From a virus, in IMG/VR virus record IMGVR_UViG_3300045988_035295: 17,639 nucleotides of DNA, one strand, 5' to 3'. Shown here in pieces: positions 3,427 to 17,639 of the stretch. The translations under genes and the position numbers were made by a program. Position 1 is the stretch's first letter. Each line of letters opens with the position of its first letter. The notes beneath the pieces are model-generated. The model did not search any database and had not been told where the DNA came from. It saw only the letters and a program-made list of their open reading frames with translations.

Positions 3427-4887
3427 ATGAAAGAGCGTCGGACGGCGGCGACAGACGGCGCAACACTATTGACAGATGACGGCATGGAACCATTAACGGC
3501 AACCGCCATTATCCGTCTCACCATGCTCGGCCACCATACGAGAGTATGGTGCGCCCACGGATGGCAGGACATCAAGCCCATAGCCGCCGAACTGTTGAAA
3601 CGACTCCCCCTACAGTCAAACCCAGCCAAGGACGGTGTGTGGGGCACGTTCAATATTCGCGGACATTTTTACAGTTTCCGTGTGCGCATGGGCGGCATCA
3701 CCGTGGATTTTGTGGACGTGCGCAACGTCACGCGCGATGATGGTCTGAATGTTTCACGTGAAACATTCGGAGGGTCCACCGACTTGGAAACCACGTGGAA
3801 CATCGCACAGGAATGCGCCGCCCTGCACCTCAGGGGCACCACGATAGCATCCATGGCGATGACCGACTATATCGGCGGGGATTACGCCGGATTCAAACGT
3901 CATTTTCCACCATTGGATAAAGAGGTTTATCATCGGATGCGCCTCGCCTACTACGGGGCGATAGTGTACAGCAAGCCGGGCGAATACCGGGATTGCCGGA
4001 GTTGGGATGTGAACAGTCTCTACCCGAGTATCATGCGCGATGCGCCCATGCCGGTAGGCTCCCCCATATGGTACGGCGGCGAATATCGATACGACAATGA
4101 TTATCCGCTGCATATCGATGTCATCACGTTTGATGCAAGGTTAAAAACGGGAAAAACAGCGACACTCACCAATATTCTGCCCGTATGGGGGTATGAGGGC
4201 AAACGCTTGGATAGTACGTTGGGCGCCATCACATTGCCGGTCACGGAGGTGGATTGGGAGACGCTGGCCGAAAACTATGGCATCCACGTGTGGGAGCATG
4301 TCGGCGGCTGGAAGTTCCGCAAATCACACGGGCTTTATTATACGTATGTGGACAAATGGTTTCACGTGAAACAGACCGCAACCGGGGAGCGCAGGCAGAT
4401 GGCGAAACTGTTGTTGAACTCGCTGGTGGGGAAATTCGGGGCCTCGCTCTACCGGCCCATGTTGCATCCGAAACCGTCCGTGGATGGCGGCGTGGATTTC
4501 ACCGTGGACAAACCCGAGTCGGCCAACAGTCTGGCATGGTTGCCGGCCGCCGCGTATGTCAACGCCTACGGGAGGCGAATACTGTCGCGTGCGATGAACG
4601 CGAACGCCGGGCGCGTGCTCTACGCCGATACTGACGGCATGATATTGGAGGGGCTGGACGTGCCTATGGGCATCGAAACGGATGACCGGAAACTAGGCGC
4701 GTGGAAAAACGACCACACCTATGGCAGACTCCGTATCCTAGGCAATCGCAAATATTGCGGCGTGGAAACAGATGGCGACACCGTCATGCGTCTGAGCGGC
4801 GTGCACCGCGCCGCTCCCATCCCCTATGATGAGTTCCTACCCGGATCACGTCATCTCAATGACGATGGCCACACTTTTATGCTATAA
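3427..4887 (+). CDS. Family-B protein-primed DNA polymerase (phi29 gp2-like), 486 aa
   Basis: SD AAGGA lies 7 nt upstream. Motif A is DVNSLYPS (4006-4029), motif B is KLLLNSLVGKFG (4405-4440), motif C is YADTDG (4621-4638), and a KxY motif occurs as NRKYCG. phi29-specific matches include DKEV..AY.G, P.G.PI...G.Y..D.DYPLHI and a TPR2-like insertion between motifs B and C. Confidence 0.93.
   Translation: MKERRTAATDGATLLTDDGMEPLTATAIIRLTMLGHHTRVWCAHGWQDIKPIAAELLKRLPLQSNPAKDGVWGTFNIRGHFYSFRVRMGGITVDFVDVRNVTRDDGLNVSRETFGGSTDLETTWNIAQECAALHLRGTTIASMAMTDYIGGDYAGFKRHFPPLDKEVYHRMRLAYYGAIVYSKPGEYRDCRSWDVNSLYPSIMRDAPMPVGSPIWYGGEYRYDNDYPLHIDVITFDARLKTGKTATLTNILPVWGYEGKRLDSTLGAITLPVTEVDWETLAENYGIHVWEHVGGWKFRKSHGLYYTYVDKWFHVKQTATGERRQMAKLLLNSLVGKFGASLYRPMLHPKPSVDGGVDFTVDKPESANSLAWLPAAAYVNAYGRRILSRAMNANAGRVLYADTDGMILEGLDVPMGIETDDRKLGAWKNDHTYGRLRILGNRKYCGVETDGDTVMRLSGVHRAAPIPYDEFLPGSRHLNDDGHTFML
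3747..3768. promoter_or_regulatory. Perfect 22-bp palindrome GAATGTTTCACGTGAAACATTC (motif copy 1, inside the pol gene)
   Basis: The sequence is its own reverse complement and shares the core GTTTCACGTGAAAC with copies at 4359 and 7422. Confidence 0.7.
4359..4372. promoter_or_regulatory. Perfect 14-bp palindrome GTTTCACGTGAAAC (motif copy 2, inside the pol gene)
   Basis: The sequence is its own reverse complement. Its reading-frame register (TTT CAC GTG AAA) differs from copy 1 (GTT TCA CGT GAA). Confidence 0.7.
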
Positions 4888-5074: not shown

Positions 5075-5416
5075 ATGGACGATACCGAAAACGATGACAA
5101 GCCGGACACCACGCCCGACACCGAGCCGGACGCCAACGCCGCCGACAATACGCCGAACCCGGAGTCTGAAACGCGGAACGACAGCGAACCGGAAGACGCT
5201 GACGATGACAAGAACGCCGACATGGCCAACCGTCTCAGCGCTCTGGAAGCGACCGTGGCCGAACTCTCCAAGACCATTGAAGAGATGCGCGACGCCGCCG
5301 CTGACCATGTGCTGAACGATGGGCCGAACGGCGACGAAGAACCGAATGCCACGGAAATGACCGACGATGATTACAACGGTACCTATTCCACGTTCGATGA
5401 CCTATTTGAAGACTAA
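5075..5416 (+). CDS. Putative scaffolding protein (phi29 gp7-like position), 113 aa, very acidic
   Basis: ATG at 5075 with AAGAGG 5 nt upstream. It lies directly upstream of the capsid gene. It has D/E-rich ends and a central helical segment (ANRLSALEATVAELSKTIEEMRDAAA). The call rests on position and composition. Confidence 0.5.
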   Translation: MDDTENDDKPDTTPDTEPDANAADNTPNPESETRNDSEPEDADDDKNADMANRLSALEATVAELSKTIEEMRDAAADHVLNDGPNGDEEPNATEMTDDDYNGTYSTFDDLFED

Positions 5417-5438
5417 TGATCAAGAAGGATTGATTATC

Positions 5439-7169
5439 ATGCCAACCACTCCAGTGGTGACGCCGAAGCAGCAGTTGCGCCCGCTCACCGAATTCAACAA
5501 CGCACAGATTCTCAACATGATTCGAAACGAGGCATCGCCCGAATATCAGAGGCGTATGCCCTCGGCCACCCAAATGAACATGGACAGGCAAATGGCCACC
5601 CTCATGTCATCCACCCAGCTCAAGAACGAGTTTTATTCGGCTCTCGTCAACCGCATTGGCGGCACCTACGTGAACACGTGGCGTTGGAATAACCCTCTTG
5701 GCGTTTTTCAGCGTGCGTCTCAGGTATATGGCGACACGTGGCAGGAAATCGCCGTCGGCATGCCGCTCGCACAGGTGTACGACCCCGACGCGGAATATTT
5801 GGGCGCGGACAACTTCCGTAAGTGGAAAATCGATGTGGATTCGCTCTACCACCGTCTGGACTTTGCTCACTGGTATCCCGCGACTACGGATGACAAGACA
5901 CTCCAGCGCGCTTTCACCTCCGAAACCGGCCTAGCCTCGCTCACTTCTCAGATTCTCACCTCCTGTTATAATGCGGCCGAGGTTGACTTGTTTGAGGCCA
6001 TGTGCCACCAGTTCGTGGAATACGCAAAGCTGGGCGGATATTGGCGCGTACACATGGCCAACGACCTGAACGACATGGGCAGTTCGGAAACCGACGCGCG
6101 CGACATGTTGCGCCAGATTCGCGCATGGGCTGACACGCTGAAGTTCGTGTCCACCCGGTACAATGCGCGTCACATGCCGACGTTTGCCCGCCCGGATGAA
6201 CTCGTGTTGTTCTGCTCCCCCGAGGTCAAGTCCGCGCTTGATGTTCAGGGCCTCGCCACGGTGTTCCAGCGTACCGACGCAAAACCGACCATTGACCGGA
6301 TTATTGTTATTCCGCAAGACAGGTTTGGCATGGATGGCGTGCAGGCGATTCTCACCACTGATAAATTCCTCATCGATATTCCCGTCATCAATGAGATGAC
6401 CCAGCAGACCAATCCAGTCAACATCAATTCAGTCAACCATTATTTGCATGTTCAGCATATTATTTCGGTGTCCGGCTTTGCCCCGGCTGTGATGTTCTGG
6501 ACGGGTGCGGGGTCTACTGCCAAGGTGGTGGCGCCGACCGGCACGACGGCCGAGACGCCGACGTTCCAGCTCAAACTCGCCATGTACGGCGGTGGCGCGA
6601 CCACGCCGGACAGCGTGGCGCGTGGCGGAGCGGTGCAGGTCACCGCCGACACGGCCATTTCCAACGATGGTGCGGCCACGTTCCGCTCGGATGCTGTTGA
6701 GTATCGCATCGGTGACACCGCTAGGCCCAAGAGCGATTACACCTACATTTCGCCGACCGGCGTGCTTGTTGTCGGTTTGGATGAGCCGAACGTCGCTATC
6801 CCGGTTACAGCAACCGCGCTATATACGAACCCGGCGACGCCGGAGGTGCCGGGCACCGTGTCCGCCGCCCTGAACGTGCCGGTGGTCGGCGAAGGTGTCA
6901 TCGGATTCAACCCGTCGATCGTCGCGTCCATTGCCGTAACCGTCCCGAACGTGACCGTAGGCCATACGGTGCGGGCTACCGCCGTGGCGACCATGATTGA
7001 CGGCCGAACCGCCGACGTGACCGCACAAGCCGCATGGACGTCCAGCGCCTCAGCCAACGCCACCGTATCCGAGTCGGGTGTCGTTACGGGCGTCAAGGCG
7101 GGTGCGTCCGACATCACCGCCACGCTGTTCGGCGTGTCCGGCAAGAAGAGCGTGACCGTGGCCGCGTGA
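5439..7169 (+). CDS. Major capsid protein (phi29 gp8-like) with a C-terminal Big_2 Ig-like domain, 576 aa
   Basis: ATG at 5439 with AAGAAGGA upstream. By-eye matches to phi29 gp8: ILNMIRNE matches IVNAIRNS, NEFYSALVNRIG....NNPL matches NDFITSLVDRIG....NNPL, and CYNAAEVDLFE matches IYNSAEVDEYE. The C-terminus WTSSASANATVSESGVVTGVKAGASDITATLFGVSGKKSVTV is a typical Big_2 signature. Confidence 0.92.
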   Translation: MPTTPVVTPKQQLRPLTEFNNAQILNMIRNEASPEYQRRMPSATQMNMDRQMATLMSSTQLKNEFYSALVNRIGGTYVNTWRWNNPLGVFQRASQVYGDTWQEIAVGMPLAQVYDPDAEYLGADNFRKWKIDVDSLYHRLDFAHWYPATTDDKTLQRAFTSETGLASLTSQILTSCYNAAEVDLFEAMCHQFVEYAKLGGYWRVHMANDLNDMGSSETDARDMLRQIRAWADTLKFVSTRYNARHMPTFARPDELVLFCSPEVKSALDVQGLATVFQRTDAKPTIDRIIVIPQDRFGMDGVQAILTTDKFLIDIPVINEMTQQTNPVNINSVNHYLHVQHIISVSGFAPAVMFWTGAGSTAKVVAPTGTTAETPTFQLKLAMYGGGATTPDSVARGGAVQVTADTAISNDGAATFRSDAVEYRIGDTARPKSDYTYISPTGVLVVGLDEPNVAIPVTATALYTNPATPEVPGTVSAALNVPVVGEGVIGFNPSIVASIAVTVPNVTVGHTVRATAVATMIDGRTADVTAQAAWTSSASANATVSESGVVTGVKAGASDITATLFGVSGKKSVTVAA

Positions 7170-7175
7170 TATAAT
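7167..7175 (+). promoter_or_regulatory. Extended -10-like element TGATATAAT overlapping the capsid stop codon
   Basis: TGnTATAAT, with the same 10-mer GTGATATAAT found at 13290-13299. No clear -35. It may not function, because hairpins follow immediately. Confidence 0.3.
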
Positions 7176-7203
7176 GAGAGAGTGGCCGGTCGGCTACTCT
7201 CTC
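7176..7203 (+). terminator. Hairpin directly after the capsid gene (12-bp stem, one G-U pair, GGTC loop)
   Basis: GAGAGAGTGGCC (7176-7187) pairs with GGCTACTCTCTC (7192-7203). No U-tract follows. Confidence 0.4.
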
Positions 7204-7225
7204 TCACGATATGATGCAGGACAAG

Positions 7226-7263
7226 GCCCGGAGCGTAGCCCACGTGAGCGCTCCGGGCTTTGT
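7226..7263 (+). terminator. Rho-independent terminator after the capsid gene
   Basis: GCCCGGAGCG (7226-7235) pairs with CGCTCCGGGC (7249-7258). The loop is 13 nt and contains CACGTG. TTTGT follows. Confidence 0.6.
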
Positions 7264-7292
7264 CATACCGGAGGTTGGATGATGATTGATGA

Positions 7293-7406
7293 CGCGAACC
7301 CCTAGTGGACAATACCGGTCTAGTCACTGGAGTGGCCGCCGGTTCCACCAAGCTGACGGCCGCGCTGTTCGGTGTCGGCTGTCAGGGCACTGTGACAGTC
7401 GCCTAA
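7293..7406 (+). pseudogene. Remnant of the C-terminal half of a Big_2 Ig-like domain, with no start codon
   Basis: The open frame after TGA at 7290 translates to REPLVDNTGLVTGVAAGSTKLTAALFGVGCQGTVTVA*. This parallels the capsid C-terminus VSESGVVTGVKAGASDITATLFGVSGKKSVTVAA*. A GGAGG plus ATGATG at 7279 opens an 8-codon ORF in a different frame. Confidence 0.55.
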
Positions 7407-7421
7407 TCTGCGATATAATAA

Positions 7422-7451
7422 AAGGGAGTGTTTCACGTGAAACACTCCCTT
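7422..7451. promoter_or_regulatory. Perfect 30-bp palindrome AAGGGAGTGTTTCACGTGAAACACTCCCTT (motif copy 3)
   Basis: The sequence is its own reverse complement. It lies between TATAAT (7414-7419) and the tail-knob start (7470). It is flanked by an A-run and TTCTTT, so it could also act as a terminator hairpin. Confidence 0.75.
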
Positions 7452-7469
7452 CTTTATGAAAGGGATAGT

Positions 7470-9719
7470 ATGCTGAGAGATATCAACCCTAACGTCGAGG
7501 CGACGTTTAACTGGGCTCAATGGACGCCCAACACGTCGTTGAAACTCTGTAACGTGCCGTGGGATAGCGGCTACCGTGACCTAGCCCGGTTCGAATCACC
7601 GCAGAAACAACAGGAATGGTTCGACCGACGGCCCGGCATTGACGGGGTGTGTGGAGTCATGCACATGTTCGGCCAACCCGTGCGCGTCGAACTGCCATTT
7701 AACGAGGCGTCCAACTACAACTATGTCGTGGTGTATAACGATTACCCCGACTTGGAGGCGCCACGGTATTGGTATTATTTCATCAACCACGTGGATTACA
7801 TCAATGCGTACACTACTCAGCTCACTGTACAGTTGGACGTTTGGCAGTCGTTCCAGCATGTACTTAGGTTTGGTTCATGCTATGTGGTGCGAGGCCATAT
7901 CGGCATTGCCAACGAAAACCAGATGACCGATTATGGTCGTAGTTATCTCGCACTACCCGAGGGGCTGGACACCGGTAGCGAAATGGTGACGGTAAACCAA
8001 CAGTACAAGTCTCTTATCGGCATGGACGGGAAAAATCTGAATTACGGCGTAATAGTCGTGAGCACGGTAGATTTGTCAGCGGACGCGGGCAGTCGGGAAA
8101 AACCGTCTCTCACTACTGCGGGCGGCTCTCTGTTTGAGAACATGGCTAACGGTGCTGAAATACTGTACTTTAAGGACATCCAGTCTATCCAAGTGTTTAT
8201 GGGAGTGGGCTCTACTTTTTCATGGATAACACAGGGTATTGTAAACATGTACATGATACCCTCTTTAGATGATGACTTTCTTAAGCAATCCGGCTATGTC
8301 GTAGATAAGCTGTTTGGGAAAACACTCCCTTCGGAATTAAATAATCGTATCTACCGTTTCCCCCAGCCGGCCACAAATGCGCCCAGCAGATATGAAGACA
8401 TTATTGCCATTAATGATTTTCGTGATAATTTTAATATCCCTAAACGTTATAAAAACCTTAAAAAACTCAAATGCTACCCCTATTCCACTGTTGAATGCAC
8501 TTGCTTGAATGGCACTAATATCACCTATAAGCCCGAAAATATCCAAAGCGATGATCTGGTTATTAGAGAGGTGCATAATTACGCGCCCAATGGCGCGCGC
8601 TTGAACTTTTACCCGGTTGGGTACAATAAGGCGGGTGCAAGCGAGATTGCTCCTCTTGGTGAAAACAATGGGTTGCCCATTGATAGCGGGGAAATGTTGG
8701 ACGCCGCGTTTGGTATCAGCAATTTCCCTCAATTTGTGATAGTCAACAATGGTGCCCAGTTGGCAATGGCAAACAGTGCCTACACTCGTTCCTACAGTCA
8801 ACAGTCCGCAGACTGGGCGTACCAAAAAGCGCAGATGGGCGTCAGTCAGTCTCTTGCGGCCACGGCCATGCAGAACCAGTACAATACCCAAGCCAACAAA
8901 CTCGCTATCGGCAACCGCAACGCCAATAACGCGATACAAGCAACCTCGCTTAACACCAGTCTGGACAACACGACGTATATCAACAATCAGCGAGCTGACC
9001 TTGCACAGCTGAATAACGTGGTCAACGGCGTGGTCGGGGTGGCGGGTAACGCCGCTTCGGGCAATGTCGGGGGCGCGGTATCGGCATTAGGCGGCGCGGT
9101 CATGAATGGTGTCAACACTGAAGCGAACCGCAGTATCAACAATACCGCCGCCCAACTTTCCACGGCGAACTCGCTGAGTACCAACGCGGCCGCAACAAGT
9201 CAGGCCAACACATACGGCTCTCAGACTACAGCGCTTTCAAACCAGTTGGCCCAAAATATGGCGGATATGAACGCGGATTACGCGCAACGTTCCGCGTTCG
9301 GAGACTATCAAAACACCATTGCGGGCATCAATGCACAGGTACAGCAGATGCAATTAACACCCCCGACCACATCCGGCGCCATCGGCGGAGACGGTTTTAA
9401 CCTCGCGAACGGTATTGTCGGGGTGTTGGTTCGATTTAAGACGTGCGCACCCTCAGCTCTGCGGAGCGTCGGAGAATACATGTTGCGTTACGGGTATTTT
9501 ATCCAGCGTTTCATCACGCCGCCGCAATCGCTGGAATGTATGACAAAATTCACCTACTGGCAGATGCAAGAGTGTTACGTGCGAGGTGATCTGCCCGAGC
9601 AGTATCGGCAGACCATTAAAGGCGTGTTCGAGTCTGGGACTACCATATGGACCAACCCGGATGATATCGGCGTGACCGATTGGGCGGATAACGACCCATT
9701 GCCCGGCATTTCATTCTAG
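7470..9719 (+). CDS. Tail knob / distal tube protein (phi29 gp9-like), 750 aa
   Basis: ATG at 7470 with AAAGGGA upstream. The GTG at 7428 lies inside the palindrome and was rejected. By-eye matches to phi29 gp9: CNVPWDSGYRD..F.....Q..WF matches ADVPFSNDYKN..F.....Q..WF, and NYNYVVVYND....RYWYYFI........TQLTVQLDVWQSF matches SASYIMFQNA....KWFYAFV........TYVHFEIDVLQTW. Confidence 0.88.
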   Translation: MLRDINPNVEATFNWAQWTPNTSLKLCNVPWDSGYRDLARFESPQKQQEWFDRRPGIDGVCGVMHMFGQPVRVELPFNEASNYNYVVVYNDYPDLEAPRYWYYFINHVDYINAYTTQLTVQLDVWQSFQHVLRFGSCYVVRGHIGIANENQMTDYGRSYLALPEGLDTGSEMVTVNQQYKSLIGMDGKNLNYGVIVVSTVDLSADAGSREKPSLTTAGGSLFENMANGAEILYFKDIQSIQVFMGVGSTFSWITQGIVNMYMIPSLDDDFLKQSGYVVDKLFGKTLPSELNNRIYRFPQPATNAPSRYEDIIAINDFRDNFNIPKRYKNLKKLKCYPYSTVECTCLNGTNITYKPENIQSDDLVIREVHNYAPNGARLNFYPVGYNKAGASEIAPLGENNGLPIDSGEMLDAAFGISNFPQFVIVNNGAQLAMANSAYTRSYSQQSADWAYQKAQMGVSQSLAATAMQNQYNTQANKLAIGNRNANNAIQATSLNTSLDNTTYINNQRADLAQLNNVVNGVVGVAGNAASGNVGGAVSALGGAVMNGVNTEANRSINNTAAQLSTANSLSTNAAATSQANTYGSQTTALSNQLAQNMADMNADYAQRSAFGDYQNTIAGINAQVQQMQLTPPTTSGAIGGDGFNLANGIVGVLVRFKTCAPSALRSVGEYMLRYGYFIQRFITPPQSLECMTKFTYWQMQECYVRGDLPEQYRQTIKGVFESGTTIWTNPDDIGVTDWADNDPLPGISF

Positions 9720-9734: not shown

Positions 9735-10691
9735 ATGTCTAGGTCGAGGAAAAATCAGGATCGTAGGGGCGGCGCGTTGCATCCGCGTGGCAATTACGCC
9801 AAGGCACGCGCCGCCAGCCTTGACGCAATGTACTACCATCTGCTGACTGAACTGGCACTGAACCGGTTCAGCTGGCGGGGACTGCCGCCAACCGTAGATG
9901 AACGATGGCTGGAAATATGCCTCTGCGAATACGGGTGCGCGCTCTTCTTCGAAGACAAACGCATAGGTCGATTCCTCGCCACGCAAGCCGGTTATCAAGG
10001 CCGACTGAACGTGTATGACAACCCGACGTGCTTTGAACCGGTGGGCGTCAACTACCATTACAAGCAACTCAAGGCGGGCCGAGAGTGCATCCCCATTTGG
10101 GACAATCGTATGCGCATGAGTTTCAAAGATATCTTATGGCAGTATGCGAGACGCCTTGCCGACATTGACAAGGCGTATGATGTGAACTTGGAGAGCCTGA
10201 AACTGCCGACCATTATCACCGCCGACCCGCGCACGAAACTCACCGTGCAAAACATGCTTCAGCAACGGCAGGACGGCCAAGACTATATTATCGGCTACGA
10301 TTCACTAGACCCCGGTAGTATGTTCCAACCGTGGCCCAACACCACCCCCTATCTGCTGGACAAGTTCATCCAGCAGAAAACGCAAGTGACTAATGAGATA
10401 CTAGGATATTTGGGCATCCAGTCCAGCGGCACGGAAAAAAAGGAACGGCTCATCTCCGACGAGGTGGCGCAGGCCAACGAGAAGGTAGACGTGTTCCGGT
10501 TGAGTTTCCTCAAGGCCCGGCAGGCTGCGGCAACCGAGATTAACCGATTGTGGCCGCGACTTAACATCTGGGTGGAGTACGCGGACACTCAAAGCTCCGG
10601 CGTGCCGAACGCGCTTGATTCCAGCGTAAGCGGCACGACTGATATTGATATGCCCGCCTCGTATGATGCGGGTATCGGAGGTGTGTTGTAA
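9735..10691 (+). CDS. Portal / head-tail connector (upper collar, phi29 gp10-like), 318 aa
   Basis: By-eye matches to phi29 gp10: a basic N-terminus, F.W.GLPPTV matching FEWENLPPTI, and EKKERLISDEV matching EKKERMVTDEV. The size also matches (318 vs 309 aa). Confidence 0.9.
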   Translation: MSRSRKNQDRRGGALHPRGNYAKARAASLDAMYYHLLTELALNRFSWRGLPPTVDERWLEICLCEYGCALFFEDKRIGRFLATQAGYQGRLNVYDNPTCFEPVGVNYHYKQLKAGRECIPIWDNRMRMSFKDILWQYARRLADIDKAYDVNLESLKLPTIITADPRTKLTVQNMLQQRQDGQDYIIGYDSLDPGSMFQPWPNTTPYLLDKFIQQKTQVTNEILGYLGIQSSGTEKKERLISDEVAQANEKVDVFRLSFLKARQAAATEINRLWPRLNIWVEYADTQSSGVPNALDSSVSGTTDIDMPASYDAGIGGVL

Positions 10692-11707: not shown

Positions 11708-12265
11708 ATGGTTGCCATTAACGCGCTGGTTCCACGGCAACGCTTGTTTGACGGGGTGCCCACGTCCGTTCCGTTTACATATCGGGACGGATTGACCACG
11801 TTGCAGTTGATTGAATGCCTGCGTCACAATCTTGATGCTTTGCAGTCAGATTTTAACGCTCTGGTTGAGTCGGTGAATGCTGCGATTGACGCCAACAATC
11901 AGGATATCAGAAATATGGCTGATAACCTGCTCAGACAGATGGCCGCCCTACGTGAGGAACTTATCAGGCTTATCAAACAATCACAGGTCACAGGGTTGGC
12001 ATGGTCGCCAGTATACGGCAGACAGGACTCTTTGCAAACGGTGCTTGACGGAATGTACGACAATACGCGCAATCACGCCCTATTCTGGAGTGATTACGAT
12101 AACATGGAGCTACAGGCATCCGCATATGACGCGCTGGGGTTGACGGCCCGCGATTATGATTTACGCGCCACCGCCGTGGATAATTGCGTTCCCGGCGATT
12201 TTCCGGGACGTTCACAATTCCCCTACGGTAGGAGTATCCCCGAGGGTGAAGCAGTTATCAGCTAA
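11708..12265 (+). CDS. Putative appendage or fibre anchor structural protein, 185 aa
   Basis: ATG at 11708 with GGGAG 5 nt upstream. The N-terminal FTYRDGLTTLQLIECLRHNLDALQSDFNALVESVN resembles the N-terminal anchor helices of Gram-positive phage appendage or fibre proteins. A coiled-coil segment follows. The call rests on position and pattern only. Confidence 0.35.
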   Translation: MVAINALVPRQRLFDGVPTSVPFTYRDGLTTLQLIECLRHNLDALQSDFNALVESVNAAIDANNQDIRNMADNLLRQMAALREELIRLIKQSQVTGLAWSPVYGRQDSLQTVLDGMYDNTRNHALFWSDYDNMELQASAYDALGLTARDYDLRATAVDNCVPGDFPGRSQFPYGRSIPEGEAVIS

Positions 12266-12381: not shown

Positions 12382-13293
12382 ATGTCCAGTATCAACAAAA
12401 CCCCGCACTATAATCTCAGCCAGTTCGGCGACAGCCCGGACGATAAGCCATCGTGGCGCGGTGACTACACCGGCGACATGAGCAAAATCGATTCACAGAT
12501 GTACCGCAACGAAACGGATGCGACCACCGCCACGTCCACCGCCAATACGGCTAAGCACACTGCCGACAATGCCTTTGAGCTGGCGCAAACCAATAAGAGT
12601 GATATTGCTGAACAGGAGTCCTATTTTACCGCGCTCGGTGTGACCTCAGAGCCGACCGCGCAGGCGTTGATATCCACCATTAACGGTAAGGCGGAAAATA
12701 CCGCGTTGACGGCATTGCAGGGCACGGTGTCTTCTCTGTCCGGCAGGGTTGACGGTAAGGCCGACGCCTCGCAGGTGTATACCAAGGCGCAGGCCGACAC
12801 TACGTTTACCAAGCAGGGCGGATATTCGGGTACCGCGCAAGAGTTGAACACCGCTATTACGGGTACCGCGCAAGAGTTGAACACCGCTATTAGTGGAGTG
12901 TCTTCAAGTTTCGAGCAATTCAAGGAGGACGGCCAGACGCCGACTAACATCGGCACACAAACGCAATCGAACTACTCCGGGCTTAATGTTGCGTTCTCGG
13001 CCTATTATTCGCCACTGACGCATCTCGTCGTGATTCGCGGCGGTCTTCATGGCACAACCGCGTCACCCTTGGAGGCGGGCGCACATCAGCTTGGCTCAAT
13101 TAACCCAAAGTATGCGCCCGCGGATTACGATCTTCAAGCAATTTGCGATTACAATTTTGGCAACTCCAGCGACGGCGCAAGGTTGGAAATCAGGACGAGC
13201 GGGGTGATCCAATTCCGAAACTGGAAGACGGTTAGTAAAGGTCAGCCAATCAATGCCGATGCCTGCGTGTCCTACTACATTCTATCAGAGTGA
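12382..13293 (+). CDS. Putative tail fibre / receptor-binding protein, 303 aa
   Basis: SD AAGGAAGGTG lies upstream. The N-terminus has a fibre-like pattern, HYNLSQFGD...W..D...DM.KID. An Ala/Thr-rich helical shaft contains short repeats. The C-terminal domain is beta-rich and globular. Intergenic spacers flank the gene on both sides, which gives it a cassette-like layout. Confidence 0.55.
   Translation: MSSINKTPHYNLSQFGDSPDDKPSWRGDYTGDMSKIDSQMYRNETDATTATSTANTAKHTADNAFELAQTNKSDIAEQESYFTALGVTSEPTAQALISTINGKAENTALTALQGTVSSLSGRVDGKADASQVYTKAQADTTFTKQGGYSGTAQELNTAITGTAQELNTAISGVSSSFEQFKEDGQTPTNIGTQTQSNYSGLNVAFSAYYSPLTHLVVIRGGLHGTTASPLEAGAHQLGSINPKYAPADYDLQAICDYNFGNSSDGARLEIRTSGVIQFRNWKTVSKGQPINADACVSYYILSE
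12828..12893 (+). repeat. In-frame 33-bp tandem duplication (32/33 identical) in the fibre gene
   Basis: GGGTACCGCGCAAGAGTTGAACACCGCTATTA(C/G) occurs at 12828-12860 and 12861-12893. It encodes GTAQELNTAIT then GTAQELNTAIS. Confidence 0.95.
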
Positions 13294-13313: not shown

Positions 13314-13328
13314 TCATGTTTCACATGA
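13314..13328. promoter_or_regulatory. Degenerate copy 4 of the TGTTTCACGTGAAACA motif (TCATGTTTCACATGA)
   Basis: ATGTTTCACATGAACCAT has 2 mismatches to ATGTTTCACGTGAAACAT. It can still form a 6-bp hairpin (TCATGT/ACATGA). Confidence 0.45.
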
Positions 13329-13331
13329 ACC

Positions 13332-13361
13332 ATACCCCGCTCGGTACGCCGGGCGGGGTAT
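13332..13361 (+). other. GC-rich hairpin (13-bp stem, one G-U pair, TACG loop) 10 nt upstream of the hydrolase ATG
   Basis: ATACCCCGCTCGG (13332-13344) pairs with CCGGGCGGGGTAT (13349-13361). No U-tract follows. The only purine-rich SD-like run (GGGG) lies in the 3' arm. Confidence 0.6.
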
Positions 13362-13370
13362 ACTAATATC

Positions 13371-14585
13371 ATGGTAGACGTGCAAGCATGGTTAGAGCGT
13401 ACTCAAAACCAGTATTGGGATATGGACGGGGCTTATGGTGCCCAGTGTTGGGACCTGTGGGCAAAATACTGTATGGATAATTACAATTTGTCGTTAGGTG
13501 ACTGCATCACCCCAACAGGTTACGCGGAAGGTAATTACACCATGTTCCCCACCACGTCCGCCGTGGGGCGTGTTTTCGAGAAAAAGGACGCCAATTATAC
13601 GCCCGGCATGGGGGATGTCGTGTTTTGGAGGTTCGGCAGTCAAAACTACCCCGGCAGTCACGTGGCCATCGTGTGGGGCGGCGTTCAAGGGAACGACATT
13701 GACGTTCTGACCCAAAACCCGACGCCCGCCGTACATCAATTGTTGCCGCTCATGAAAAGCTCGCAACTTCTCGGTTATCTGCATCCCACGGCATTGCCGG
13801 AACCGCCGGAATCCGGCGACAATCCGACAGGCGGTGATAATCCGGGCGTGAACGTGGGCGGTGATATCTCCGCGTGGATTCAATTACAGGGGGATGATCT
13901 CGTATATCACAGTGGTTCGGGCACGACATCATCGCAAGCCATTTTCTACAAGTCGAGCGCCCAGACTTGGATATATCGCGGGGGGGCAGGTCAGCCGGAC
14001 GCCGACCAAGGTCAGGGCACGCCAAGCGTAGGCGACGGAAAAAGCTCGTATGCGCTCTATGTCATCGGCACCGTCGAATCATCATTACACTGGGATGCGG
14101 TCGAACCAAACAATCAGGGCATCGGCATTGCACAATGGAGTTTTGGACGCCGCCTACAGGTCTTGAACGCGATGAGGGCGGTGGACGCTGTAGGATACGA
14201 GGCGTTTGCGGCCGCCGCGCCGAGCATCGCCGCGCTCATGGAATCAGGCGGCACGTTCGACAGGGCGATGACCGGTAGCGAGGTTGCGGCATTCCAGACG
14301 TGGGCGCGGCGCACGGAATCACGGCAGGGCCAGCGTAATCGGTTCGCACAGGATTACGAGAGCTACCCACAGACGTATAGTGACACGAAAATGCAAATAC
14401 TATGGGTGTCCGCCTATCACCAAAGCCCGGCAGGCGCGTTGAACGTGCCCCATGCCTCAACCCTTGCCCAACTGTATAATAATATCCTCAATACATCACC
14501 GTTCGGGCCATATGGGACACGCTACAATAGCGTCTACTCGCTGTTGAATGTGTGGGACGGCACCAGCGCGCCACCGAACTTCTGA
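13371..14585 (+). CDS. Tail-associated peptidoglycan hydrolase: N-terminal CHAP peptidase plus C-terminal lysozyme or transglycosylase-like domain (phi29 gp13 position), 404 aa
   Basis: CHAP signature: the Cys context YGAQCWDLW and the His context PGSHVAIVWG. A Pro/Gly linker follows (PEPPESGDNPTGGDNPG). The C-terminal GTVESSLHWDAVEPNNQGIGIAQWS resembles the E-S...G-(L/I)-x-Q motif of lysozyme-like and SLT-type tail lysins. Confidence 0.75.
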   Translation: MVDVQAWLERTQNQYWDMDGAYGAQCWDLWAKYCMDNYNLSLGDCITPTGYAEGNYTMFPTTSAVGRVFEKKDANYTPGMGDVVFWRFGSQNYPGSHVAIVWGGVQGNDIDVLTQNPTPAVHQLLPLMKSSQLLGYLHPTALPEPPESGDNPTGGDNPGVNVGGDISAWIQLQGDDLVYHSGSGTTSSQAIFYKSSAQTWIYRGGAGQPDADQGQGTPSVGDGKSSYALYVIGTVESSLHWDAVEPNNQGIGIAQWSFGRRLQVLNAMRAVDAVGYEAFAAAAPSIAALMESGGTFDRAMTGSEVAAFQTWARRTESRQGQRNRFAQDYESYPQTYSDTKMQILWVSAYHQSPAGALNVPHASTLAQLYNNILNTSPFGPYGTRYNSVYSLLNVWDGTSAPPNF

Positions 14586-14590
14586 CGCAA

Positions 14591-14622
14591 TGACAGACCG
14601 GTGGATATCCACCAGTCTGTCA
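14591..14622 (+). other. Hairpin containing the perfect 14-bp palindrome GGTGGATATCCACC
   Basis: TGACAGAC (14591-14598) pairs with GTCTGTCA (14615-14622). A C/A mismatch follows, then the inner palindrome at 14600-14613. It lies 6 nt after the hydrolase stop and 15 nt before the ATPase ATG. Confidence 0.6.
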
Positions 14623-14637
14623 CTACTGTATGGTAAA

Positions 14638-15744
14638 ATGGATATTATGGAGAGCTTGTTAGCGGAGGATGATTATTACGATTATGGGCGCGTATTATCC
14701 TATCATGCGCCTTGGATGTTCGTAATCGGCGCGCGCGGTCTCGGAAAAACCTACGGAGCCAAAAAACTTGTCATAGGCGACTGGATAAAAAAACGCTGGC
14801 AATTCATCTATCTCCGCAGGACGGCAGAGGAGCAGAAAAAAAAGGGCACATGGTTTGCTGACATCGCGGAACAATACCCGGAATTGGAGTTCCGCATATC
14901 CGGCAATCAGGCAGAATGTCACTGGCTGGATGACAGGGACGCCGCCACGGACAAGCACGGCAAGACGCGCCCGACATGGCATATCATGGGGTACTTCATC
15001 GCCCTGAGTCAGGCAGGACAAGTAAAATCGGTTGCGTACCCCAAAGTCCGAACCATTATTTTCGATGAGATTTTCCCCGACAACATGCGGTATTTGGGCG
15101 GTGAAGTAACAGCGCTTGAGGAATTTTATAATACGGTTGACCGGTGGAATGATAGGGTCCGCGTTATCATGTGCAGTAATGCGGTAACGTTGGCTAACCC
15201 GTATTTTAGCGCATTTAATATCAACCTGAAGCCGCAATTAGATAATCACACGCAATACCAACGATATTGCGACGGCTTCATCATGGTGGAATTGGCCGAC
15301 TACGGCGGGTTCAGCGCAAAGGTTGTCTCATCCAAATTCGGTACGTTCTTACGCAAGCATGACGAAAACTACGCGAATTATGCAATCAACAATGATTTCA
15401 GGGATAACGCCAATACTCTCATCAGTGATTTCAGCAACGCCGGTTATGCGCTCACGCTAAGAACCACTGAATACGGTATTTTTAATATATACCAACAATT
15501 AAGCGATACTGACGAGGTACTATATATCATTACCAAAAAACAGCCGAAAATCACCCGTGATTTTACGTTTGATTACCGACTGGTTGACAATGATTGCATC
15601 ATGCTCAAACGCTCCGACGATATGACGCAGAAAATACTAAACGCCTATCGCGTCGGACGGTTACGTTTTGAAACGCCGCAGATCAAAGCAGAGTTCAGTA
15701 TGATACTTGGCGGCTTGTTACAACAATCAGGCATAAGAAAGTGA
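14638..15744 (+). CDS. DNA packaging (encapsidation) ATPase, phi29 gp16-like, 368 aa
   Basis: By-eye matches to phi29 gp16. VLSYHAPWMFVIGARGLGKTY matches MLSYDRILNFVIGARGIGKSY (Walker A). QFIYLRR matches QFIYVRR. RTIIFDEIF matches STIVFDEF (Walker B). RVRVIMCSNAVTLANPYFSAFNI matches RVRCICLSNAVSVVNPYFLFFNL. GRLRFE matches GYLRFD. I chose the start after the hairpin; an ATG at 14647 is an alternative. Confidence 0.9.
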   Translation: MDIMESLLAEDDYYDYGRVLSYHAPWMFVIGARGLGKTYGAKKLVIGDWIKKRWQFIYLRRTAEEQKKKGTWFADIAEQYPELEFRISGNQAECHWLDDRDAATDKHGKTRPTWHIMGYFIALSQAGQVKSVAYPKVRTIIFDEIFPDNMRYLGGEVTALEEFYNTVDRWNDRVRVIMCSNAVTLANPYFSAFNINLKPQLDNHTQYQRYCDGFIMVELADYGGFSAKVVSSKFGTFLRKHDENYANYAINNDFRDNANTLISDFSNAGYALTLRTTEYGIFNIYQQLSDTDEVLYIITKKQPKITRDFTFDYRLVDNDCIMLKRSDDMTQKILNAYRVGRLRFETPQIKAEFSMILGGLLQQSGIRK

Positions 15745-15754
15745 GGAAACGTTC

Positions 15755-16120
15755 ATGCAAACCCGTGAGTTAATCGTTATCGGTGTCGTATTTTTATTGG
15801 TGCTGATTGACTATATTACCGGCGTGGTCTATGCAATCATGCACGGCGAACTGTCTAGTGAGAGAATGAGGCAGGGACTCGGGCATAAATTCGCATACCT
15901 TGCGATAATTTGCGTGGCGTTGATCGTTGAATACAGTTCGGATTACATCAATCTGGGAATCGGATTACCCGTATTCATGCCAGTATGTGCAGGTATCAGT
16001 CTGATTGAAATCACGTCAATTATGGAAAACTGTGCGAAAATTAACCCCGAACTATCCAAATCAAATATTCTCAATATTTTCAAAGTCGATAAGAAGGAAA
16101 GCGACAGCAAAGAAGATTAG
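15755..16120 (+). CDS. Holin (phage_holin_4-like), 121 aa
   Basis: SD GAGGA lies upstream. There are three hydrophobic segments. LIDYITGVVYAI..GELSSERMRQGLGHKFAYL matches the conserved pattern of the toxin-secretion/phage-lysis holin family. The C-terminus is charged, and the gene sits directly upstream of the endolysin. Confidence 0.85.
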   Translation: MQTRELIVIGVVFLLVLIDYITGVVYAIMHGELSSERMRQGLGHKFAYLAIICVALIVEYSSDYINLGIGLPVFMPVCAGISLIEITSIMENCAKINPELSKSNILNIFKVDKKESDSKED

Positions 16121-16129
16121 GGAGCAATC

Positions 16130-17005
16130 ATGAATGACATCACATGGATAGGGTCCCCCAACCACTACAACGGACGCAACGGCTACGCCATAAGCCACAT
16201 CACACTACACATCATGGTTGGCACCCTAACCGGCACCGACAGCGTTTTTCAACGCGCCGGATACGCTTCGGCCCACTACGGCATCGGAGGCAACGGCGAG
16301 ATACACCAGTATGTGAGCGAGAGTGACGGCAGTTGGAGCGACGCGAACTATGCGAGCAACAACAGCACCGTAAGCATCGAACATGAAGGCGGCATGGCTG
16401 GCGTGCCTTGCACGCGCGCATGTATGGACGCTTCGGCCCACCTATGCGCCGATATCGCACGCCGTCAAGGCTGGGGCCGCCTGTGGTATGACGGACTCAA
16501 CGGCAACATCTGGTTACACCGAGAAATACCCGGAACTGACCACGCCGGATGTCCCGACCTAGCCCCCAACGGACTTGACGTAAACTACGTCATCAACAAA
16601 GCAAACCAACTATTAGGAGGAAACGACATGACAAGCGCCGGAGATGTTTGGAACTATGATATTGGAGCAGACGCCACGCCCGGAAAAGACAATCAACCCG
16701 CGTGGACACGCCTGAGCTGGATTCACCACGACACCGCCAAACTGTACAGCATTCTTACGCGCACCGACGATGGCGGCGCCAAGGACGGCACAAAAGGCGA
16801 CATCTTCACACGCATCTGCTACATCGACAAGCGAGTGCGCGACATGACAGCCACAATCACCGCCCAAGCCGCTGCCATCGAAGCGCTCAGCAAAGCCCTC
16901 GGAACCAACCCCGCCGACATCGCGGCCACCGTCGAGAAAGCTGTTAAAACCAAACTCGACGCACTCGAAATCACCATAAGCGCCAAAGACAAGACAAAAA
17001 AGTAG
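16130..17005 (+). CDS. Endolysin, N-acetylmuramoyl-L-alanine amidase (Amidase_2/PGRP type), with an unassigned C-terminal domain, 291 aa
   Basis: SD GGGAG lies upstream. Amidase_2 pattern: ITLHIM..T, SAHYGIGGNGEIHQYV, STVSIEHEG, and LHREIPGTDHAGCP with Zn-ligand-like H, H and C. The last 130 aa or so show no LysM, SH3 or choline-binding repeat pattern. Confidence 0.85.
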   Translation: MNDITWIGSPNHYNGRNGYAISHITLHIMVGTLTGTDSVFQRAGYASAHYGIGGNGEIHQYVSESDGSWSDANYASNNSTVSIEHEGGMAGVPCTRACMDASAHLCADIARRQGWGRLWYDGLNGNIWLHREIPGTDHAGCPDLAPNGLDVNYVINKANQLLGGNDMTSAGDVWNYDIGADATPGKDNQPAWTRLSWIHHDTAKLYSILTRTDDGGAKDGTKGDIFTRICYIDKRVRDMTATITAQAAAIEALSKALGTNPADIAATVEKAVKTKLDALEITISAKDKTKK

Positions 17006-17086: not shown

Positions 17087-17353
17087 TCACCCTTCCCTCC
17101 CATAAAAACACTCAGGGTTCTCAGAAACAAACCTCATAAGGCGATAAACAAAGCCCACCATATTATCCATAGCCGAACAAGCCCCACCAGTACAAGGGTC
17201 ATACGTTTCAGTAAAAAACTTTACAATCACAAACCTCTTTAAACGATAACGCAAGACAAGAACCTCTTTCCCATCCAACTCACCAGTCTCAAAACGAACA
17301 GAAATACCGGTCATCTCAACCACCATCCCTTTTCTACATTCCTTGGTTGACAA
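17087..17353 (-). CDS. Hypothetical early protein reading inward from ITR-R (88 aa from TTG; shorter from an internal ATG)
   Basis: The first 14 codons (MSTKECRKGMVVEM) are identical to ORF 287..511 because they lie in the ITR. The sequences then diverge completely. It ends before the bidirectional terminator. It shares the G+T-rich coding-strand bias of the left early genes. Confidence 0.45.
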   Translation of the reverse strand: MSTKECRKGMVVEMTGISVRFETGELDGKEVLVLRYRLKRFVIVKFFTETYDPCTGGACSAMDNMVGFVYRLMRFVSENPECFYGREG

Positions 17354-17639
17354 TTACATAATACACCACCACAAAACACAACACGCCGAACAACACAAAA
17401 AAAACGATAAAAAACCATGCGCTTAAATTACAGACAAAACCACACGCTAAAAATCTGAAACAAAACAACACACAAAATTGACAACAGAAAAGAACGCGAC
17501 AAAACAGAAAACAACAGAAACAACAACAAACAACAAAACAAGAAAAACAACAAAAAACACAGAACAAAACACAAGAACAAAACACACAACAAAGCAGCAC
17601 TGGAAAAAGGCTAACCACAGGGACCCCACCCCTCCTTTT
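17311..17639. repeat. Right inverted terminal repeat (ITR-R), 329 bp
   Basis: Reverse complement of 1-329. It ends exactly at the window edge (...CCCCTCCTTTT). Confidence 0.95.

Follow-up and report, generated by a model that had tools for sequence, protein, structure and literature searches.

Palindromes matching host-type parS sites in the DNA polymerase gene and elsewhere in a phi29-like phage genome

The stretch of DNA analyzed here (the window) is the 17,639-bp virus record IMGVR_UViG_3300045988_035295 of IMG/VR, and its subject is a palindrome that recurs in and beyond the gene of a protein-primed family-B DNA polymerase. This gene, pol (3427-4887, + strand), was recognized by Pfam (DNA_pol_B_2, E = 1.3e-33) and by alignment with the polymerases of phi29 and of Bifidobacterium phages. 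The 14-mer GTTTCACGTGAAAC occurs exactly at 3751-3764 and 4359-4372, both within pol, and again at 7430-7443, while a copy with two mismatches, GTTTCACATGAACC, lies at 13318-13331. Read as 16-mers, these copies define four sites that we call parS1 to parS4. Site parS1 (TGTTTCACGTGAAACA, 3750-3765) is translated in pol as the codons N-V-S-R-E-T and forms the center of a 22-bp perfect palindrome (3747-3768). Site parS2 (GGTTTCACGTGAAACA, 4358-4373) keeps a perfect 14-bp core, is translated as W-F-H-V-K-Q and lies just upstream of polymerase motif B, where it aligns with DKWTYIKTT of phi29. Site parS3 (also TGTTTCACGTGAAACA, 7429-7444) lies between the capsid and tail genes, at the apex of a perfect palindrome of 30 bp (7422-7451), and parS4 (TGTTTCACATGAACCA, 13317-13332) is decayed in the window and perfect in 13 relatives. 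An earlier reading of the sequence (the original prediction) had recorded the two longer palindromes, the different frames in which the two pol copies are read (N-V-S-R-E-T-F and W-F-H-V-K-Q) and the conserved protein segment that holds the second copy, all of which we recovered. The spacing within pol that it gave as 611 bp is 608 bp from core start to core start, and the degenerate fourth copy that it placed at 13314-13328 exists and is better delimited as 13317-13332.

The repetition is not accidental. In Markov shuffles TTCACGTGAA is expected 0.03 times and it occurs three times, and matches to the parS consensus are expected about 6e-5 times in 17.6 kb. Chance can therefore be excluded, as had been claimed for the three exact copies, because these lie far above the shuffle expectation. 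A shuffle test that allowed up to three mismatches was uninformative (four matches against 0.9 expected); the signal resides in the exact copies. Enrichment of half sites was considered and rejected, since the heptamer GTTTCAC is confined to the full sites and GTTCCAC occurs at expectation.

In sequence, TGTTTCACGTGAAACA equals the canonical parS of bacterial chromosomes, at which ParB/Spo0J nucleates. The parS consensus is common to Bacillus, Corynebacterium, Mycobacterium and Caulobacter, and a published review table gives it as TGTTNCACGTGAAACA for B. subtilis and C. glutamicum (10 sites each), as GTTTCACGTGAAAC, the very 14-mer of the original prediction, for M. smegmatis (three sites), and as TGTTTCACGTGAAACA for Hyphomonas (two sites). 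Against the consensus TGTTNCACGTGAAACA, which comes from other bacteria, the phage host being an inferred one, the window matches at 16/16 positions at 3750 and 7429, at 15/16 at 4358 and at 14/16 at 13317. In a full-text literature search for TGTTTCACGTGAAACA, the matches listed were mostly ParB-parS studies. We also scanned one genome per species from 185,579 species for the 16-mer, and the matches listed included many phyla, often with several copies per few kilobases. In three annotated actinobacterial matches (Microbacterium, Frigoribacterium and a Coriobacteriaceae metagenome-assembled genome) the 16-mer adjoins gidB close to the origin. In Microbacterium L151 it lies between gidB and a parA-parB pair, the ParB of which carries ParB_N and HTH_ParB domains. 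The statement that no bacterial regulator was known for this site can consequently not be maintained: TGTTTCACGTGAAACA is a textbook parS, and its occurrence on phi29 has already been published. On these matches, the palindromes of the window are very probably ParB-binding parS sites.

We examined conservation in 81 genomes, the window and 80 IMG/VR relatives (L002-L081) whose polymerases are 86-94% identical in protein sequence and diverge by about 15% on average at the nucleotide level. The 218 parS-like matches with at most one mismatch all fall into four positional classes. At least two consensus-perfect sites are present in 72 of the 81 genomes and at least three in 50, and consensus-perfect copies of parS1 and parS2 were found in 65 and 64 genomes, respectively. 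Three relatives (L006, L010 and L020) carry the two polymerase sites and no third one within the region covered. Changes were then counted by parsimony on a tree built by the unweighted pair group method with arithmetic mean, using a gapless codon alignment of the polymerase. Degenerate third positions within the two pol sites sustained 59 changes against 108 +/- 21 expected (p = 0.008), and the core positions, a set chosen post hoc, 28 against 77 +/- 18 (p = 0.0016). The comparison of relatives that the original prediction had proposed, covering presence, position and synonymous variation, thus came out in favor of function.

The distribution of these changes follows the consensus. In parS1 the third positions changed 4, 5, 6, 6, 2 and 15 times against a background of about 12, and core third positions other than N show 2-6 changes against about 10-12, although a few core variants do occur. 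The most common variant, a T-to-C change in parS2 found in 20 of 80 genomes, yields GTTCCACGTGAAAC and falls on N5 of TGTTNCACGTGAAACA. Furthermore, the codons that make up parS1 are minor ones (GTT 18%, TCA 14%, CGT 21% and ACA 15%), a combination with a joint probability of 1.6e-4 given the peptide. In parS2 the tripeptide F-H-V is specific to the lineage and sits between an invariant W and an invariant K, and other phages have SEL, SGL, GDL, YKR or TYI at its place, so that the polymerase protein itself, judging from these alignments, seems to have been shaped to accommodate the site. We set aside a right half-site resembling parS at 3787-3802; its 5-codon window looked constrained, and the per-codon counts were unconvincing (AAC with 19 changes, TGG with no and TTG with few synonymous third-position options). 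In parS1 of L066 and L070 (GTCTCACGTGAGAC) and of L069 (GTTTCGCGCGAAAC), two symmetric substitutions leave the palindrome perfect. A host ParB whose specificity is altered might account for such variants. Taken as evidence of dimer binding they were discarded, since two independent cases among about 15 two-mismatch variants (a hand count) do not differ significantly from a rough chance of about 8%. Overall, the pattern of substitution indicates that the sites are under purifying selection at the DNA level.

The third site offers a different view of the same selection, since it occurs in two arrangements. In class A genomes, which include the window, parS3 stands at the apex of a hairpin and starts 10 nt 3' of a TATAAT -10 box, which in the window belongs to GTGACA-16-TATAAT (7392-7419, + strand), a putative promoter and the best sigma70-like match found there. 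Among relatives, a TATAAT-like -10 box is found at the same distance in several different upstream contexts. Class B genomes retain the same -10 box and an equally stable hairpin (-22.7 kcal/mol) of unrelated sequence that lacks parS, and their third parS lies about 200 bp further on, within the tail-knob gene, where it is translated as R-F-V-S-R-E-T-Q; the homologous codons of the window read R-F-E-S-P-Q-K-Q. Each allele of the third site thus carries its own parS. Both arrangements occur in genomes of similar polymerase identity to the window, and these modules therefore recombine. Since the third site has moved between the intergenic region and the tail gene, it is the DNA site that is selected and not its promoter or hairpin context. 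Relocation, together with synonymous constraint, also bears out the proposal that the repeated unit is DNA and not a peptide.

Folding was compared with that of shuffled sequences. The parS3 region forms a 13-bp stem (-20.9 kcal/mol, z = -4.4) and parS1 a 12-bp stem (-15 kcal/mol, z = -4.3), whereas parS2 shows no stability beyond that of the shuffled sequences (-3.7 kcal/mol, z = +0.4). In some relatives parS3 is succeeded by a stretch of 7-8 T. We rejected the hairpin as a common denominator of the sites, given that parS2 does not fold and that the class B hairpin lacks the motif. A stable stem-loop with a U-tract does not accompany every copy, and parS3 alone looks like a terminator. Neither do the sites keep a fixed position relative to a promoter among relatives, as operators would, for two lie deep in pol and the third is mobile. 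The same 300-bp capsid-tail intergenic region (7170-7469) contains a second strong hairpin (7220-7264, arms GACAAGGCCCGGAGCG and CGCTCCGGGCTTTGTC), whose arrangement with respect to the promoter differs in class B genomes.

A further conserved hairpin, ATACCCCGCTCGG-TACG-CCGGGCGGGGTAT (13332-13361, + strand), lies directly 3' of parS4 and belongs to the context of this site and not to the putative ParB site itself. Its stem shows compensatory changes among relatives, and it is followed by TATACT (13359-13364), 6 nt and an ATG at 13371. The hairpin/TATACT module looks like a terminator/promoter, possibly with a leaderless start, as far as its sequence allows one to say. In some genomes the hairpin and GGGGTATAGT module is duplicated upstream; the relatives recorded for this element are L022, L029, L040-L042 and L049.

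A search for ParA, ParB or other DNA-binding domains returned none in 20 open reading frames (ORFs) with Pfam or in 10 unannotated ORFs with PHROGs. The binding protein is for this reason presumably that of the host. A phage-encoded ParB or regulator was likewise considered for the early ORFs, for which Pfam and PHROGs gave nothing. ParABS was present in all actinobacteria surveyed in the literature, six Bifidobacterium genomes among them, and the OMM12 Bifidobacterium has ParABS homologs together with consensus parS sites.

A probable host is suggested by the relationships of the phage. The window begins and ends with 329-nt terminal inverted repeats (1-329 and 17311-17639) that are 100% complementary, which shows that a whole linear genome of the protein-primed kind is present, and it is a phi29-like protein-primed podophage genome related to Bifidobacterium phages. 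Of 20 ORFs compared, 16 have counterparts with 27-60% identity in Bifidobacterium picoviruses (BD811P2, BD811P3, BP1 and BadAargau2). By polymerase, the closest isolates all infect Bifidobacterium, and the endolysin matches those of B. dentium phages with 61% identity over its full length and 79% nucleotide identity over 527 bp. Because ORF counterparts, nearest polymerases and endolysin all point in this direction, the host is, on sequence grounds, probably Bifidobacterium or a close actinobacterium. No phage relative that could speak to host identity or an episomal state was found in the 185,579 bacterial genome assemblies.

Host-type parS sites on a phage have a precedent. Phage phi29 carries five of them and uses them with Spo0J for spore entrapment, according to Meijer et al. 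2005 as recounted in PMC2731898. In its genome (NC_011048) we located perfect copies of TGTTTCACGTGGAACA at 10445, 15903, 17243 and 18760 and a degenerate one at 11796, mostly inside genes. B103 and Nf have two perfect sites each. The Clostridium_AQ phages CI55P1 and CI130P1 have one perfect site in pol, CI461P1 has one with one mismatch in pol, and the human faecal phage contig MT836241 has one perfect site; as a set, these four lie at L210 4504-4519, L211 10864-10879, L212 10355-10370 and L213 10264-10279. No parS was found in GA-1, Cp-1, Av-1, Curtobacterium phage Thatch, BD811P2, BD811P3, BP1 and BadAargau2, and none, even at two mismatches, in 80 BD811P2-like IMG/VR genomes (L216-L295, 1.18 Mb). 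This BD811P2-like sister clade is syntenic with the window clade, and both come mostly from metagenome collection 3300045988. Since the survey found parS in some phi29-like phages and none in others, carriage is patchy and recurrent among them, and it is specific to the clade in the case of the window.

The window shares with phi29, Nf and B103 a small linear protein-primed podophage genome with scattered host-type copies and no recognizable ParB of its own, and with phi29 the placement of most sites inside coding genes at a density of about one per 4-5 kb. However, the positions are not homologous, the sites of phi29 being in late genes and genes of the right end and two of those of the window in pol, and the two lineages are very distant (about 34% polymerase identity over the alignable part). 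Unlike phi29, the window has all its genes on one strand and lacks a Spo0A-box arm: TGTCGAA boxes occur twice against 2.8 expected, and both copies lie away from the promoter-like elements beside parS3 and parS4. By analogy, the window would act like the parS arm of the phi29 strategy and not as a member of the full Spo0A/Spo0J spore-entrapment system. The CI55P1, CI130P1 and CI461P1 phages are phi29-like gut phages that likewise have parS embedded in pol, but they have a single copy, located elsewhere in the gene at about codon 497 of 577, and their host, Clostridium_AQ, belongs to another phylum, Bacillota. Compared with the chromosomal sites of actinobacteria, the sequences are identical (GTTTCACGTGAAAC in M. 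smegmatis, TGTTNCACGTGAAACA in C. glutamicum) and copies are again clustered within a few kilobases, whereas the sites of the window are viral, far from oriC and parAB, and lie in coding sequence under dual constraint. Phage-encoded partition cassettes are of another kind. The P1 parABS, N15 sopABC and mycobacteriophage parABS systems belong to temperate phages, which supply ParA and ParB themselves and rely on parS sequences of their own. They likewise endow a phage genome with a centromere for episome-like segregation, but the window is without recognizable parA or parB and its site is the consensus of the host itself. The window clade is thus a further case of what is already described for phi29, and what sets it apart is the probably non-sporulating host, the sites fixed in the polymerase gene and the parS-free sister clade.

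These patterns suggest how the sites could work. ParB dimers nucleate at parS, bind cytidine triphosphate (CTP), slide over neighboring DNA, recruit SMC and are moved by ParA, and polar attachment of the origin in actinobacteria depends on ParB, ParA and DivIVA. The dimeric host DNA-binding protein and the looping between sites that the original prediction listed among its candidates fit this behavior. In the mechanism we propose, a host chromosomal ParB dimer would bind each site through its helix-turn-helix domains, and after CTP binding the sliding clamps would spread along the 17.6-kb linear genome. ParB accumulation in vitro requires closed DNA or capped ends, and the terminal protein covalently bound at the genome ends may serve to keep the clamps on. 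To the ParA/ParB/SMC machinery of the host the phage DNA would then resemble a chromosomal origin region, and it would be placed or segregated together with the origins of the host, much as phi29 DNA is by way of Spo0J. We consider it likely that the palindromes are host-type parS sites, three intact and one decayed, bound by the host ParB with this outcome. That positioning or partition of the phage genome is also the function for which they were selected is a more tentative proposal, the likeliest of the roles considered and yet slightly less likely than not. In a Bifidobacterium-type host the likely benefit would be that unexpressed or slowly developing genomes are carried through divisions, or that they are placed at the ParB/DivIVA pole. 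More speculatively, and in our estimate rather doubtfully, a large clade of supposedly virulent phi29-like gut phages of a non-sporulating actinobacterium, probably Bifidobacterium, that have parS as their sole partition element may ride the host ParABS system, the terminal protein-capped genome being inherited, or anchored at the pole, as a quasi-episome during delayed lysis.

Several observations weigh against this interpretation and limit its reach. The synonymous constraint is significant but moderate; among 482 windows of 5 codons, those of the two pol sites come 15th and 24th from the bottom, and constraint just as strong is seen elsewhere in pol. Four of the 81 genomes, one of them the truncated contig L069, have no consensus-perfect site, and parS4 is decayed in the window, so that the sites are not indispensable. 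The 80 genomes of the BD811P2-like clade do without parS altogether, as do the isolates BD811P2, BD811P3, BP1 and BadAargau2. The link to the host rests on a polymerase identity of 34-37% to Bifidobacterium phages and on the 61% identity of the endolysin. If the host is Bifidobacterium, spore entrapment cannot apply, because Bifidobacterium is non-sporulating. As that rationale would then be inapplicable, and as Spo0A boxes are not enriched, the benefit remains conjecture.

Among the alternatives, the one closest to our proposal accepts the same ParB binding and assigns it another purpose, either that of a ParB sink, to the detriment of host chromosome segregation, SMC loading or division, or that of silencing or timing phage transcription in the manner of KorB and P1 ParB. 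A sink is conceivable, as each of many genome copies would bring three to four sites in 17.6 kb, all the more since loss of ParB in actinobacteria is reported to cause segregation and division defects; nothing in the sequence tells titration and partition apart. Silencing could draw on the location of parS3 10 nt downstream of the best -10 box and of parS4 just upstream of a gene start. However, the sites of class B genomes are intragenic in three of three cases and their promoter-hairpin is without parS, so that promoter overlap is not a conserved feature. Taken together, we hold these other purposes to be unlikely, with a minor but real share of the probability. The same observations confine a promoter-operator role, which is at best secondary, since about half of the relatives carry the third site inside the tail gene and not at the promoter. 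A regulator encoded by the phage, a dimeric analog of phi29 p4 that would govern the early-to-late switch, could explain why the sites are palindromic and why two of them are near promoter-like elements, and several early ORFs (287-1872) without recognizable function could encode it. Yet an operator of this kind would have no reason to match the universal parS at 16/16 positions or to tolerate change precisely at the parS N, nor to have two copies deep in pol and a third that moves between promoter and coding sequence. Moreover, most ORFs of the window, early ones included, have homologs in the BD811P2-like phages, whose 80 genomes are free of the site. We regard this explanation as improbable.

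It is scarcely more probable, and if anything a little less so, that the selected unit is a nucleic-acid hairpin acting as a terminator, as a stabilizer of the 5' end of late mRNA or in displaced single-stranded DNA. The parS3 and parS1 stems (z = -4.4 and -4.3) and the T run in some relatives speak for it. The failure of parS2 to fold better than shuffles does not, and neither does the conservation of a specific 14-16-mer, which goes beyond mere base pairing; in addition, class B genomes keep a stable hairpin of unrelated sequence in the same place, and hairpin and motif are therefore separable. At parS3 itself a dual role as hairpin and site is likely. Least probable of all, and very remote in our judgment, is a restriction or methylation target centered on CACGTG or a recombination hotspot, both of which had been put forward in the original prediction. 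The CACGTG core is present in the sites, but in the window it is neither enriched nor avoided (11 against 8.0 +/- 2.9), conservation spans 14-16 bp and includes the flanking GTTT/AAAC arms, and no methyltransferase or nuclease domain was found in the ORFs by Pfam or PHROGs. The class A and B alleles look exchanged between genomes of similar pol identity, a pattern that a hotspot could invoke; as an account of the sites themselves, nothing supported it.

If the sites are indeed occupied by the host ParB, an unexplained palindrome becomes a specific host-virus interface, with host ParB on phage DNA. The parS sites of phi29 were explained by spore entrapment; in the window clade they are strongly conserved and lie in part within an essential gene, and the nearest cultured relatives of this clade infect non-sporulating Bifidobacterium. 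This suggests that ParB hijacking is more general in its use and may serve genome positioning, carrier-state inheritance or interference with segregation. The parS-free BD811P2-like sister clade provides a natural control and a clean comparative system. Were the proposal true, a ParB-dependent carrier state could help explain the long-term persistence of lytic phages in the gut, and parS in phage contigs may mark such lifestyles. There is also a caveat for motif-discovery pipelines, in which parS could be called a novel operator.

The remaining gene content is that of a phi29-like phage, with all large ORFs on the + strand. Pfam recovered the expected set of polymerase B_2, Phi29 major capsid protein, connector, gp9, gp16 and Phi29 single-stranded DNA-binding protein (SSB). 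The phi29-type SSB (1905-2342) precedes pol, which is followed by the phi29-like major capsid protein (5367-7169), the gp9-like tail-knob protein (7470-9719), the connector (9735-10691), a CHAP/lysozyme tail enzyme (13371-14585), the gp16 packaging ATPase (14548-15744), a holin (15755-16120) and an amidase endolysin (16130-17005), all on the + strand and all assigned by Pfam. No Rfam family, the packaging RNA (pRNA) included, matched anywhere in the window. The polymerase is 486 amino acids long, its homologs in Bifidobacterium phages being annotated with 445-483, and its N-terminus shows no clear ExoI D-x-E motif in the phi29 alignment; by this comparison, the enzyme may possess a degenerate or reduced 3'-5' exonuclease domain. 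The first kilobase (1-1000) has a strong G/T skew (GC skew 0.47, AT skew -0.47), with repeated TGTGTTTTGTT-like units and little convincing coding capacity. Finally, the ORF at 12382-13293, the one late ORF almost without homolog in the Bifidobacterium phage isolates, may encode a receptor-binding protein, and it contains a perfect 33-nt tandem duplication at 12827-12892 that translates into an 11-amino-acid repeat.

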